This document shows, piece by piece, positions 3,526-8,515 of a stretch of DNA of 24,000 nucleotides (within the stretch, counting starts at the first letter, position 1; each line of letters opens with the position of its first letter). The stretch covers positions 1-24,000 of the forward strand of contig CAZYQT010000006.1 of assembly GCA_964650255.1 (NCBI GenBank), read 5' to 3'. The notes beneath the pieces are model-generated. The model saw only the letters and a list, made by a program, of their open reading frames with translations. It ran no database searches and was not told the origin of the DNA. The DNA is from an uncultured Candidatus Saccharibacteria bacterium. GTDB lineage: Bacteria; Patescibacteriota; Doudnabacteria; UBA920. The translations under genes were made by a program, and so were the position numbers.

Positions 3526-4290
3526 TTAAATTTTTTCCCAAAACCCTTTAAACATTTCACGTAAGTTTTTAGCCATGACTGCATCATGCGTTTCTACTAA
3601 ATAGTGTGGATGTTGGTTAGTAACTATAAACAAAACATAATCACCAAGAACTGCATGTGTAGCAGTAAAGTCCACGGATTTATCCCAATACTTCACTTGT
3701 CGATTTTTATTCTTCACAGCATCGGCAATTTCTTTTTCCGAAGGTTTATTGTTTGTAATTAAGCGTGTACCAAAATCCTCTGGAAAAATTTCCCAATGAT
3801 GCTCAACCCAATCTTTATATTCTTGTAATATTGATGCATCTTGAAATCCCCACCAGTTTTTCTCATTAATGTTTTTGGCACTCTCAATCCAAATAGGTAA
3901 TTGCTTAAATAGAAAATCTTTTAATTGTGGCTCATCAATAAAACGAATTTTAGGAACAGAATACTGCTTTGATTTTGGCAAAGCCTGTAATTCCAAGATT
4001 GCCTGCTCAATAGCAGTCTTTTTTTGTTCAAGTTCCTGTTCTTGCGATTTATATAGAGTGCGGAGTTCTTCGGGGGGCGTGGCTGTGTAGTAGGTGGTGG
4101 TGCCGCCCAAGTCCTCTTGGATAATTCCTTTTTTGATAAGCTCCTTAGAAACGCTGTAAACAGTAGTTCTATTGATTTTTGATACTCGGGAAACGTCTGC
4201 AGCTGATAGTTTACCATTCTCTTGAATGCACAAATATACGGCGATTTCCTTATCTGTGAATCCTAATTCTTGCAAATATTCGTTTAGCAT
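3526..4290 (-). CDS. TrmB-family transcriptional regulator
   Basis: The N-terminal winged HTH is typical of TrmB (LGFTDKEIAVYLCIQENGKLSAADVSRVSKINRTTVYSVSKELIKKGII), followed by a coiled-coil linker and a C-terminal effector-like domain. Confidence 0.8.
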   Translation of the reverse strand: MLNEYLQELGFTDKEIAVYLCIQENGKLSAADVSRVSKINRTTVYSVSKELIKKGIIQEDLGGTTTYYTATPPEELRTLYKSQEQELEQKKTAIEQAILELQALPKSKQYSVPKIRFIDEPQLKDFLFKQLPIWIESAKNINEKNWWGFQDASILQEYKDWVEHHWEIFPEDFGTRLITNNKPSEKEIADAVKNKNRQVKYWDKSVDFTATHAVLGDYVLFIVTNQHPHYLVETHDAVMAKNLREMFKGFWEKI

Positions 4291-4389: not shown

Positions 4390-4418
4390 TTGACAAAATG
4401 TCAAAAACTTGATATACT
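4390..4418 (+). promoter_or_regulatory. Near-consensus sigma70 promoter of the hammerhead-containing operon, with an operator-like palindrome over the -35
   Basis: TTGACA (4390-4395)-17 nt-TATACT (4413-4418). The perfect palindrome TTGACAaaaTGTCAA spans 4390-4404. Confidence 0.7.
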
Positions 4419-4482
4419 GGTCTCAACAAAAATAAATTCTGGTGTAGCGAGCCAAAAATACGCAAAATTTTAGGAGGAAAAA

Positions 4483-4875
4483 ATGGTACCAAGTTTTGAC
4501 AGTAATGGCTTAGCTGATGGCCTTACGGAAATGGATGAGGCGTCCAAAGCTCGATTGGAAGAATGGAAGGAAGCAATTAACAAACTTCCTGATACTGAGG
4601 ACTTTGATACAGACACACTCTCCAATCAAGCTTACATCTTAATACAAGGGGCGCTAGATGTAGGTTTTGATGAACATAGATCCCATGATGTGTTCTATCA
4701 ATTCAATCAAGGTGATCGAGCTCTCTTAACTGAAAGTTGCAATTGCAGTAGCGGTAGTCTGTGCCCGGCTAGACAAGCGAAAGTTAGATTCGATGGAACA
4801 TGGAATGAAGCTTACGCCGAGATGGTCAAGCTTTTGAAAAATAAAGCTAACCAAATTCCACAACCACCTGTGTGA
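4483..4875 (+). CDS. Hypothetical acidic protein, 130 aa (operon ORF1)
   Basis: AGGAGG lies 6 nt upstream of the ATG. No family recognised. Confidence 0.65.
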   Translation: MVPSFDSNGLADGLTEMDEASKARLEEWKEAINKLPDTEDFDTDTLSNQAYILIQGALDVGFDEHRSHDVFYQFNQGDRALLTESCNCSSGSLCPARQAKVRFDGTWNEAYAEMVKLLKNKANQIPQPPV

Positions 4876-4898
4876 AAACAGTTAAATCTTTTAGGTTC

Positions 4899-4971
4899 GA
4901 GAGGTCCTATTAAAACCTCTCACTGTCTCGAAGTGAATACTTCGACTGATGAGCTCAAAAGAGCGAAACAG
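4899..4971 (+). ncRNA. 7-bp hairpin (4899-4921) plus type III hammerhead ribozyme (4923-4971), copy 1
   Basis: CUGUC|UCGAAG-UGAAUA-CUUCGA-CUGAUGA-GCUC-AAAA-GAGC-GAAA-CAG. All invariant core positions are present, with a GUC cleavage triplet. Predicted cleavage falls after C4927. Confidence 0.88.
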
Positions 4972-5045
4972 AAAATCCAGCATGTGACTGGTTCGCGGGC
5001 TGATAAGGATCGCGCGAGACATTAAGCAATAGGAGGAAATTAAAT

Positions 5046-5417
5046 ATGCAAAATTTGTTGACTAACAAATTAGAAGCTGACTTAGCAGCTGTAGTTGCCA
5101 CTGAAGCATTTAATGATGCTGCGCACGCTGCTGAGTGGAAATTTGTTGAGTATGTGAACATTAAACAATTTAATGGTTCCATATCAGCAACTGCTATATA
5201 TTCATCAGATGATGTGATATTAGTATACGCTAATGGCTATGGTGACAAAAACCATTTTGCTCATTCGTTTTTGAGGCACACCTTGGAGAAGGCGGGCTTC
5301 GCGTATGCTGAGATAAATCTATATTTATCAATTCACACTGGATTAAGGCCTTGTTTAGTAATTTCTGATTACGATAAGTCTGTGAGTCCAGCTGAGTATA
5401 TATCTAGCAGGCTTTAA
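5046..5417 (+). CDS. Hypothetical protein, 123 aa (operon ORF2, bracketed by the two ribozymes)
   Basis: AGGAGG at 5031-5036 lies 9 nt upstream of the ATG. No family recognised. Confidence 0.65.
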   Translation: MQNLLTNKLEADLAAVVATEAFNDAAHAAEWKFVEYVNIKQFNGSISATAIYSSDDVILVYANGYGDKNHFAHSFLRHTLEKAGFAYAEINLYLSIHTGLRPCLVISDYDKSVSPAEYISSRL

Positions 5418-5649
5418 TTGCGCTGTTTAAATAAACAGTTCGCAATATCCCAGAGCTTAGTCTGACTGGGGGATATCTAATTTAATGCGCTATGAAAGAC
5501 CGAAAAGCGCGAAGCAGTATGTGACTGTGGACAGTGAATTAGACTAAATATCATGTCGTGAGACAGCAATATTTAGAAATTAATAAGCTCCACGTGATAG
5601 CCGTTTGTCTATCAACCTCCCCGCTCAAGTAGGTTTAAACCTTGAGCAC

Positions 5650-5722
5650 AGGAGATTCTAATAAAATCTCCTTCTGTCTCGAAGTGAATGCTTCGACTGA
5701 TGAGGCCAAAAGGACGAAACAG
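5650..5722 (+). ncRNA. 7-bp hairpin (5650-5672) plus type III hammerhead ribozyme (5674-5722), copy 2
   Basis: CUGUC|UCGAAG-UGAAUG-CUUCGA-CUGAUGA-GGCC-AAAA-GGAC-GAAA-CAG. The core is identical to copy 1. Stem II has one G.A mismatch and one compensated pair. Predicted cleavage falls after C5678. Confidence 0.8.
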
Positions 5723-5755
5723 ACAAATATGATAGTCAATCAATAGGGGGTGTGT

Positions 5756-6163
5756 ATGTTAAAGATTGAAAATGATGAGTTTAAGAACTTTCCTGTTGAT
5801 CAGCAGGTAAATATTATCCATAAAGCAATTATGGCTGATGATGATATAGAATTTTTCTTTTATGAACTGAAATGCGGTGTGGAAGAAAAAAAGTCCATTT
5901 ACAAGGCTCACTGTAAAAATCAAACGAGAGATGGGTCAATAGTTCGAATGTTTGAAGCTATGGATTTAAGTGATGTTGAAAAACAGGAATTAGCAGAGTG
6001 CGCGATTACTGCAATTATCTCAAATAAATTTTTGAGCTCTGCAAGATATAGATATGACATGCTCTCAAAATATCTTAGTTCAGACAAGCAGGCAAAGTTT
6101 TCTGCCGTGCTTGAGGATCGTGAGCATCAATCTTCATTGCGTAAAAGTGTTCTAGGTATATGA
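5756..6163 (+). CDS. Hypothetical protein, 135 aa (operon ORF3)
   Basis: The track starts at GTG 5750. I prefer ATG 5756 because AGGGGG (5745-5750) would then be a properly spaced SD. No family recognised. Confidence 0.6.
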   Translation: MLKIENDEFKNFPVDQQVNIIHKAIMADDDIEFFFYELKCGVEEKKSIYKAHCKNQTRDGSIVRMFEAMDLSDVEKQELAECAITAIISNKFLSSARYRYDMLSKYLSSDKQAKFSAVLEDREHQSSLRKSVLGI

Positions 6164-6184
6164 ACCAAAACACGCATTTATTTT

Positions 6185-6212
6185 GCCGGTTGTTAATTCA
6201 GCCGGCTTTTTT
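6185..6212 (+). terminator. Intrinsic terminator of the three-ORF operon
   Basis: GCCGGUUG-uuaauu-CAGCCGGC (8 bp including one U.G) followed by TTTTTTgTTTT. Confidence 0.7.
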
Positions 6213-6233
6213 GTTTTCCCAGTTTAGTCTGGA

Positions 6234-7426: not shown

Positions 7427-8515
7427 ATGGCAAAAAAAACTAAAGAACCAAAGACCACTGCACCAAAGGCAACTTCCACAGCCGGCAAGTGGGGAGCAGT
7501 GGAAAGCGCAATGGATCAAATTCGCGATAAATTCGGCGATGGTAGCATCATGAAAATTTCCGATACCCAAAAACTGAACGTAGAAGCAATTCCTACTGGC
7601 AGTATTAGTTTGGATATGGCCCTGGGTGTTGGCGGAATTCCTAAGGGGCGCATTGTAGAAGTGTATGGTCCAGAAAGTTCTGGTAAAACAACTTTAACTT
7701 TGCACATGATTGCTGAAGTGCAAAAGAAAGGTGGCTTGGCGGCATTTATTGATGCAGAGCACGCGCTCGACCCTGACTACGCAAAACGTATCGGAGTTAA
7801 TTTAGAAGATTTGTTAATTTCTCAACCAGACAGTGGTGAGCAAGCTTTAGATATTACAGAGACTTTGGTGCGGAGTAATGCGTTAGATTTAATTGTTGTT
7901 GACTCAGTAGCAGCATTAACACCGCGTGCGGAAATTGAAGGTGAAATGGGTGCGTCGCACATGGGGCTTCAAGCAAGACTTATGTCGCAGGCGCTTCGTA
8001 AGTTAACTGGAATTATTTCTAAATCCAACACGACTGTCATTTTCATTAACCAGATTCGTATGAAAATTGGGGTAATGTTTGGTAACCCAGAAACAACTAC
8101 TGGTGGGAATGCTTTGAAGTTCTATGCATCGGTTCGAGTGGAAATTCGCCGCAGCGCGCAAATTAAAAATGGTGATAAAATTATTGGCAACCGTACCAAG
8201 GCCAAGGTGGTGAAGAACAAAGTGGCGCCGCCGTTCAAAGTTGCTGAGTTTGATATTATGTACAACGAAGGTATTTCTTCTGAAGGAGATGTTCTCGACA
8301 CTGGCTTATTGTTTGAAATAATTAAGAAGAACGGTAACTCGTATTCTTACAAAGACATTAAGCTTGGGGTTGGCCGCGAAACAGCGAAAACTTTTCTAAA
8401 AGAAAATAAGGATATCTTTGAGCAAATAGATAAAGATTTGCGTACCCAGCTAGATAGCGGAGCTGGTATTCCTGAAAAGTTGGTAGAAGCTGAAGAAGAA
8501 ATCGACGAAGATTAA
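7427..8515 (+). CDS. recA: Recombinase RecA
   Basis: Full-length RecA with Walker [10 protein letters not shown], the L1/L2 region ([32 protein letters not shown]) and an acidic C-terminal tail. Confidence 0.97.

Follow-up and report, generated by a model that had tools for sequence, protein, structure and literature searches.

Two type III hammerhead ribozymes at the locus studied here each carry a hairpin directly on their 5' side, which raises the question of what such a hairpin contributes to a self-cleaving RNA. The window, that is, the whole stretch of 24,000 nt that was analysed, looks by its gene content like a Saccharibacteria-type (candidate phyla radiation) chromosome and holds genes for FtsK, a TrmB-like regulator, a RodZ-like protein, RecA (7427-8515), a DEDDh exonuclease and several T4SS-pilin-like proteins, together with a tRNA whose anticodon was read as UAG, hence Leu. 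The hairpin-ribozyme units sit between three small open reading frames on the forward strand, ORF A (4483-4875, 130 aa), ORF B (5046-5417, 123 aa) and ORF C (5750-6163, 137 aa), the last of which is the cistron downstream of the second hammerhead. All three are bracketed by a promoter-like site on the same strand (4390-4418; TTGACA, 17-nt spacer, TG, TATACT; 11/12 consensus matches) and by an intrinsic-terminator-like hairpin with a T-run (6185-6216, forward strand), which would end a three-cistron transcript. By its match to the consensus, the promoter-like site could drive a transcript with both units; the total number of promoter-like sites in the consensus scan equalled the shuffle expectation. 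A similar hairpin-plus-T-run, read from the sequence, follows the corresponding ORF in the related locus L211. The flanking small ORFs of the window and of related loci gave no match in PHROGs, Pfam, NCBIfam or PADLOC, and region 4400-6200 gave none by BLAST against cultured-phage genomes. Searching for related loci with RecA (7427-8515) as the query returned only generic RecA neighbourhoods without synteny.

Hammerhead 1 (4923-4971, forward strand) matches Rfam RF00008 with 40.2 bits (E = 7.5e-07) and consists of a 4-bp stem III (CUGU 4923-4926 with ACAG 4968-4971), a predicted cleavage site after C4927, stem I (4928-4945, loop GAAU), the core CUGAUGA (4946-4952), stem II (4953-4964, loop AAAA) and GAA (4965-4967). 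Hammerhead 2 (5674-5722, forward strand; 36.5 bits, E = 8.4e-06) is predicted to be cleaved after C5678. Both copies read CUGUC...CUGAUGA...GAAACAG and contain C3-U4-G5-A6-N7-G8-A9, G12-A13-A14, A15.1-U16.1 and an NUH cleavage triplet, which is GUC in each case; in the Rfam alignment, stem III is the open one and loops cap stems I and II. The default Rfam scan missed both, as their scores lie under the RF00008 gathering score of 48.5 bits. A short stem III of 4 bp costs score, and the E-values still indicate that both are true RF00008 matches. We infer from these features that the two ribozymes cleave themselves in vivo. Stem II of hammerhead 2 (GGCC/GGAC, 5704-5715) has a G.A mismatch at 10.2/11.2 where relatives have GUCC/GGAC; this copy looks chimeric, with a stem I of the copy-1 type and a stem II of the type found in an uncultured-bacterium contig (L202), and it may be the weaker ribozyme. 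The exact window ribozyme sequence was absent from the viral contigs searched. A mini-hairpin with the arms CTGT and ACAG around GTGAAA (4868-4881) overlaps the ORF A stop codon; it shares the CUGU/ACAG arms with stem III of the ribozyme and could compete with the formation of that stem.

The two accessory hairpins each comprise a perfect 7-bp stem and a 9-nt loop. Hairpin 1 (4899-4921, forward strand) reads GAGAGGT-CCTATTAAA-ACCTCTC, with arms at 4899-4905 and 4915-4921 and the loop at 4906-4914, and hairpin 2 (5650-5672, forward strand) reads AGGAGAT-TCTAATAAA-ATCTCCT, with arms at 5650-5656 and 5666-5672, the loop at 5657-5665 and a possible eighth pair, U5657-A5665. An earlier interpretation made from the letters of the window (below, the sequence-only reading) had given exactly these sequences and positions, as a check on the window sequence confirmed, and its claim of three compensatory changes between the copies is likewise borne out: when aligned in register, pairs 1, 2 and 6 differ (G-C to A-U, A-U to G-C and G-C to A-U), and none is broken. 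It had further placed each hairpin exactly 1 nt before a 4-bp stem III. That is correct for copy 1, in which the unpaired A4922 lies between hairpin and stem III and faces A4972 as a mismatch, but it need not be for copy 2, in which U5673 can pair with A5723 as read from the sequence. If this pair forms, stem III has 5 bp and hairpin 2 abuts it directly, leaving copy 1 as the only one with a true 1-nt gap. Predicted folding energies are -8.3 and -8.0 kcal/mol for hairpins 1 and 2, corresponding to z-scores of -3.1 and -2.7 against shuffled sequences. In the whole 24 kb, perfect 7-bp hairpins (loops of 3-12 nt) end at only 52 distinct 3' positions. The probability that one of them ends 0-3 nt 5' of a given point is thus about 0.9% per site, and that of finding this at both sites about 7.5e-05; because such hairpins are this rare, a chance origin of both is unlikely.

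Several familiar identities were considered for these hairpins and rejected. They are followed by A or U and CUGUCUCG rather than by the U-tract expected of intrinsic (Rho-independent) terminators, and the terminator scan made no call at 4899-4921 or 5650-5672. RNase III sites of the phage T7 type have about 20 bp, compared with 7 bp in the window stems and 6-19 bp in phage versions. A sigma-70-type promoter using TATTAA or TAATAA in the loop as its -10 element was rejected too, as no promoter-like site on the forward strand overlaps either hairpin. A further perfect 7-bp hairpin (5623-5647, forward strand; GCTCAAG-tagGTTTAAACc-CTTGAGC) lies 2 nt before hairpin 2, and the 230-nt non-coding stretch 5418-5649 has a predicted strong fold of -62 kcal/mol.

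Relatives of the unit were sought in genomes and metagenomes with a pattern in which the ribozyme loops and core were fixed and the stems left free. A Candidatus Saccharibacteria genome (L205) has a ribozyme identical to hammerhead 1 and a TrmB gene syntenic with the window, and L211 has syntenic RodZ-like and RecA genes. In both, the stem is the same as in window hairpin 1, the loops differ (CUUGAUAAA and CCUUUUAAA), and a U precedes the ribozyme. The uncultured-bacterium contigs L202, L203 and L210 carry the 7-bp hairpins GCUAGUG/CGCUAGC, GUCAUAG/CUAUGAC and GGGUGAU/AUCACCC, respectively, with A/U-rich loops of 6-8 nt and the same single A as spacer. Across the seven close units, double changes are found at 7/7 hairpin pairs and 49/49 cells are paired, in an alignment that took the ribozyme as its anchor, filled the loops with N and had its register chosen by hand, and that consequently leans toward pairing; it replaced an unguided MAFFT alignment, in which the divergent hairpins were misaligned.

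The arrangement is general and extends beyond the window locus, and the hairpin is positionally coupled to the type III ribozyme. A search of viral contigs for CUGUC...CUGAUGA...GAAACAG yielded 120 loci, most of them with a strong upstream hairpin on inspection. For counting, a set of 75 non-redundant type III hammerheads was assembled from the viral loci, the close relatives in bacterial genomes and metagenomes, and the window, and a hairpin was scored when a single hairpin of <=-8 kcal/mol ended within 3 nt of CUGUC; this measure replaced a whole-window minimum-energy fold, which was too loose, with a background of 35%. An adjacent upstream hairpin was found in 60/75 cases (80%), compared to 13.6% of positions drawn at random from these loci (Fisher p = 9e-31) and 4.1% of mirror positions 3' of the ribozyme (p = 3e-23). 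The sequence-only reading, made on the window, could not have known of this generality. The accessory hairpins have a median energy of -13.8 kcal/mol and a GC content of 0.56, against 0.40 for the loci; 40/60 are closed by tetraloops, and phage stems comprise 6-19 bp, mostly 7-13. Compared to the phage versions, the window hairpins are weak, with about -8 kcal/mol, 7 bp and 9-nt A/U-rich loops. In 54/60 units, an upstream ORF ends shortly before the hairpin (median distance 8 nt), and the ribozyme is separated from the next ATG by a median of 25 nt.

With a covariance model trained on the seven close units, 171 matches were obtained in 95 DNA stretches, often 3-5 per phage contig. In a model-guided alignment of 142 distinct hairpin-hammerhead units, 94.1% of the hairpin cells are paired, a value inflated by the fitting to the model's structure, compared to 33-50% when the partners are slid; the test by energy and position given above is independent of any alignment. 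All 7 hairpin pairs covary in these 142 units, and stems I and II, which are 99.6% and 91.4% paired in the same alignment, covary as well. Selection on the structure of the accessory hairpin, which that reading had suggested from two copies, is thus strongly supported by sequence comparison, both in the seven relatives and in the wider set. G.U pairs make up about 10% of the hairpin cells, and G shows a strong preference for the 5' arm, with G-C outnumbering C-G at every pair (e.g. 59 to 8 and 70 to 7), which argues for a structure at the RNA level on the ribozyme strand. The 5' arms are often Shine-Dalgarno-like and the 3' arms CCUCC-like.

Type I hammerheads from the same phage loci allow a comparison between topologies. 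Among 29 such ribozymes, which were obtained by a structural pattern search and are only in part confirmed by Rfam, an adjacent upstream hairpin was found in 10%, that is, at background level (13.6%). Their closed stem III has a median energy of -12.9 kcal/mol and ends 1 nt before the cut. The upstream products of both types would accordingly end in a strong hairpin of similar median energy (-12.9 versus -13.8 kcal/mol), since type I has its closed stem III and type III the accessory hairpin. The two differ in that the type I hairpin is stem III itself, with a tail of 1 nt, whereas in type III a separate hairpin stands beside a short open stem III and the predicted tail from hairpin to new 3' end is 5-8 nt. 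A separate hairpin thus appears, as judged from these sequences, only where the topology of the ribozyme provides no 3' hairpin itself.

On balance, we consider it probable, if by no great measure, that hairpin and type III hammerhead together form an intercistronic unit whose self-cleavage leaves the upstream RNA with a protective 3' hairpin. A transcript at the window locus would probably start near 4390, end at the terminator at about 6185-6216, and cut itself after C4927 and after C5678. Because stem III comprises just 4-5 bp, the upstream piece would fall away, and its new 3' end would bear a 2',3'-cyclic phosphate 6 nt past the hairpin. There, the hairpin would act in the manner of a terminator hairpin, leaving a single-stranded tail too short for 3'-to-5' exonucleases to engage, while the downstream piece would carry a 5'-OH at its start, with stems I and II coming immediately after it. 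Type III is the one topology whose upstream product would otherwise be without a hairpin, and the accessory hairpin would supply it. The stop codon of ORF A lies 23 nt 5' of hairpin 1, and the ORF A mRNA would therefore end in this hairpin after cleavage; ORF B is contained in the 751-nt segment 4928-5678 between the cleavage sites. The 3' ends of the three predicted products would be formed by hairpin 1, hairpin 2 and the terminator hairpin, respectively. Since the hairpin abuts stem III, it would very probably also stack on this weak helix and aid its formation before cleavage, which is likely to be a second role. Stem III has to be short for the product to come free, and a helix of that length would profit from stacking.

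The sequence-only reading had offered stacking on stem III, protection of the 3' end and protein binding as functions, and protection fits the data best: the hairpin is restricted to the 5' side and absent before type I, and where it is not adjacent, a hairpin-plus-T-run terminator is often found instead. A hairpin on the 3' side would stack equally well and is yet found in only 4%, and the upstream products of type I already end in a strong stem III hairpin. Of the 15 type III cases lacking an adjacent hairpin, 7 have a hairpin of <=-9 kcal/mol at a distance of 4-12 nt upstream, followed by a T-run in 3 of them; 4 of the 15 have no upstream ORF. The unit moreover fills the gap between cistrons, as the median distances to stop codon and ATG demonstrate, which likewise favours protection as the main role. 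A single example also fits a role at 3' ends. At L205 7771-7840, a homologous hairpin with no ribozyme after it lies in the 3' UTR of a gene and reads GAGAAAU-CCUAUCAAA-AUCUCUU, in which one position is an A.C mismatch and another a G.U pair; it is preceded by ctaggttc and followed by a hairpin-plus-T-run terminator. The stem of this terminator (GCTCAAG...CCTTGGGC) resembles the arms of the window hairpin at 5623-5647, which has no T-run. In L211, unlike at this site, an intact hairpin and hammerhead come after the end of the homologous gene. Against protection, it may be held that the abutting geometry is predicted equally by stacking, that the weak hairpins of the window would be poorer blocks to exonucleases than the phage versions, and that downstream hairpins could be scarce for another reason, namely that the next ribosome-binding site must remain accessible.

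The most serious alternative, which we regard as possible but rather unlikely, is that the hairpin is mainly a structural clamp. By stacking end-to-end on an open stem III of 4-5 bp, itself stacked on stem II, it would stabilise or nucleate the active fold during transcription, and any effect on RNA stability would be incidental. The geometry agrees with this role, as it does with the stacking proposed by the sequence-only reading: the offset between the hairpin end and the end of the extended stem III peaks at 0 and -1, and stem III rarely exceeds 4-6 bp (extension 0-2 in 65/75). Adjacent hairpins are in addition missing next to the two longest stems III of the set (extension 4 and 5) and from type I hammerheads, in which stem III is long and closed. 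The rarity of hairpins on the 3' side, at which stacking would be just as effective, speaks against a clamp as the main role, and so does the open stem I of type I (5-8 bp), which is without one. A median of -13.8 kcal/mol together with the GC enrichment is also far stronger than a stacking platform needs, and the seven hairpins at a distance of 4-12 nt are too distant to stack. Protection of the upstream message, with stacking as a second role, is the reading we retain.

It is improbable that the hairpin acts as a general folding insulator, locking the upstream sequence or shielding the ribozyme from terminating ribosomes. The genes that precede the unit are indeed many and unrelated, their stop codons lying only 4-14 nt from the hairpin, and in the predicted folds of window constructs hairpin and ribozyme form separately. 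Type I hammerheads, however, reside in the same phages, where they meet equally variable upstream sequences and the same ribosomes, and have the hairpin at no more than the background frequency.

A recognition site for a protein or ribonuclease, in the 9-nt loop or in the Shine-Dalgarno-like 5' arm (GAGAGG, AGGAGA), is less probable again. The length of 9 nt, U3 and the final AAA are kept in the five close relatives (CCUAUUAAA, UCUAAUAAA, CUUGAUAAA, CCUUUUAAA and CCUAUCAAA), the 5' arms are G-rich, and the homologous hairpin of L205 persists without a ribozyme. But U3 and the final AAA are also all that is invariant, 5/9 loop positions varying among these five, and stem sequences change freely. 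The loops of distant relatives are unrelated, A/U-rich and of 6-8 nt, and the majority of the phage versions have tetraloops, so that of the loop pattern YCUAWUAAA, which the sequence-only reading had taken to be conserved, there remains the length, and that in close relatives; the protein-binding role proposed alongside it loses its footing, as loops are not conserved past these. Nor was a conserved neighbouring gene for an RNA-binding protein seen; the flanking ORFs have no family match.

That the hairpin is a transcriptional pause site or a weakened terminator, with the ribozyme trimming read-through transcripts, appears very unlikely. The hairpins do resemble terminator stems in being GC-rich and closed by tetraloops, and several loci have a true hairpin-plus-T-run terminator just before the ribozyme; what follows the hairpin, though, is by construction CUGUC and not a U-run, and neither window hairpin was called in the terminator scan. 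An inverted repeat acting at the level of DNA, as an operator or a recombination site, suggested by the perfect repeat in DNA and the nearby TrmB-like regulator gene, or a product of chance can be practically dismissed, as the half-sites differ between copies and across relatives with pairing kept, the G.U cells would amount to A.C mismatches in the opposite strand or a DNA cruciform, and both sites would arise by chance at the probability calculated above.

Protection of the upstream message by a hairpin next to the processing site has parallels elsewhere. The early genes of phage T7 are separated by intercistronic RNase III sites, at which the polycistronic transcript is cut in such a way that a stabilising 3' hairpin is left on the upstream message; this processing requires a protein enzyme of the host, together with a stem of about 20 bp that contains an internal loop. 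In the unit described here, the RNA is instead predicted to cut itself beside a hairpin of 7-13 bp and to produce 2',3'-cyclic phosphate and 5'-OH ends. Intrinsic terminators in their capacity as 3' stabilisers similarly present a GC-enriched stem-loop a few nucleotides from the 3' end and shortly after the stop codon, whereas the unit has no U-tract and its 3' end would be formed by cleavage and not by polymerase release. By analogy, T7 RNase III sites and message-stabilising terminator hairpins would be the closest functional counterparts. RiboJ, a synthetic ribozyme insulator, has an extra hairpin downstream of the ribozyme that exposes the ribosome-binding site; the accessory hairpin is located upstream, and both leave a defined structured end. 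Cas6/Csy4 repeat hairpins also combine cleavage beside a hairpin with the separation of cistrons and a defined structured end, but the cut depends there on a protein, Csy4, with a specific hairpin as its recognition site (PMC4604432).

With respect to known hammerheads, the window units agree with Rfam RF00008 in CUGAUGA, GAAA, the GUC triplet, closed stems I and II and the open stem III, and differ from it in that the Rfam model describes no hairpin 5' of stem III and scores the window ribozymes below gathering. Hammerheads flanking single genes have been described in prophages, and processing of long transcripts has been proposed for them (Perreault et al. 2011, PMC3088659); the two copies of the window flank a single gene in the same way. 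That study mentions neither an upstream hairpin nor a terminator (PMC3088659). In the hammerhead literature searched, which comprised the main survey, reviews, and discovery and methods papers, with subscription journals outside its scope, we found no description of the upstream hairpin. Thus, the core ribozyme is known, and the extended type III unit with a 5' accessory hairpin appears to be new. It might further be hypothesized, with confidence somewhat short of an even bet, that this unit represents a widespread composite element which provides many phages and Saccharibacteria-like bacteria with gene punctuation free of host enzymes and with upstream messages capped by a 3' hairpin.

If this is true, the accessory hairpin would be a missing clue to the role of bacterial and phage hammerheads, of which thousands are known and whose role is largely elusive according to a review from 2019 (PMC6765202). 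A conserved hairpin tied to the side of the ribozyme on which the cut falls is concrete structural evidence on that role, and it points to stable separate messages made in a controlled way, not to RNA destruction. The hairpin is also of practical value. Including it in search models recovers phage hammerheads that fall under the Rfam threshold: at Rfam gathering thresholds, only 2 ribozymes were reported in 15 multi-hammerhead phage loci (141 kb), compared to the 171 matches in 95 stretches obtained with the covariance model. The natural hairpin-hammerhead unit might in addition serve as a ready design for separating cistrons in synthetic operons.

The search also yielded a number of observations on the loci themselves. 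Several viral contigs (L049, L034, L058, L068, L117, L098 and others) have 3-6 hammerhead units at distances of 0.5-2 kb on one strand, and type I and type III are mixed in some of them, e.g. L098. A search of the multi-hammerhead phage loci for other ribozyme classes returned hammerheads only. In the cultured Pseudomonas phage DL54 (Bruynoghevirus; NC_028919.1, approximately 44,920-45,030; L212 640-750), 2 nt separate the hairpin AAAGGGG...CCCCTTT from a type III hammerhead that has GUA at its cleavage site. Bruynoghevirus relatives of DL54 carry the unit as well, and 65 related Pseudomonas phage records match. The annotated start codon of DL54 gp71 begins at the last bases of the ribozyme, leaving no room for a Shine-Dalgarno sequence.

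In the window, the 751-nt RNA 4928-5678 would have a 5'-OH and a 2',3'-cyclic phosphate at its ends. As RtcB-type ligases can join such ends, a circular RNA from this segment is conceivable; circular products were sought in other loci by Perreault et al. 2011, and none were found (PMC3088659).

Further features accompany the units in the bacterial loci. A gene for a TrmB-like winged-helix regulator is found in the window (3526-4290, reverse strand), in L205 (5882-6664), twice in L210 (3584-4327 and 6646-7410), and in L202 and L203. In every Saccharibacteria-like locus examined, on both occasions in L210, it is divergent from the small-ORF operon that holds the units. The small, variable, unannotatable ORFs differ between Saccharibacteria-like genomes, and the RNA unit is 85-96% identical. 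A second conserved hairpin is located about 30-60 nt upstream of the hammerhead in L202 (two copies), L203, L208 and L210. Its stem covaries (AGGACA/UGUCCU versus AGACAA/UUGUCU), and its 14-nt loop, GCCUAAUCGUAAAA or GCCUAUUCGUAAAA, recalls the window loops CCUAUUAAA and UCUAAUAAA. Finally, a near-identical 25-nt hairpin, AAGGCCGGGCTAT(G/A)TGCTCGGCCTT, occurs at 62-86 and 684-708 of the window, in copies 622 nt apart, and weak sub-threshold Rfam matches to small RNAs lie around 606-746.
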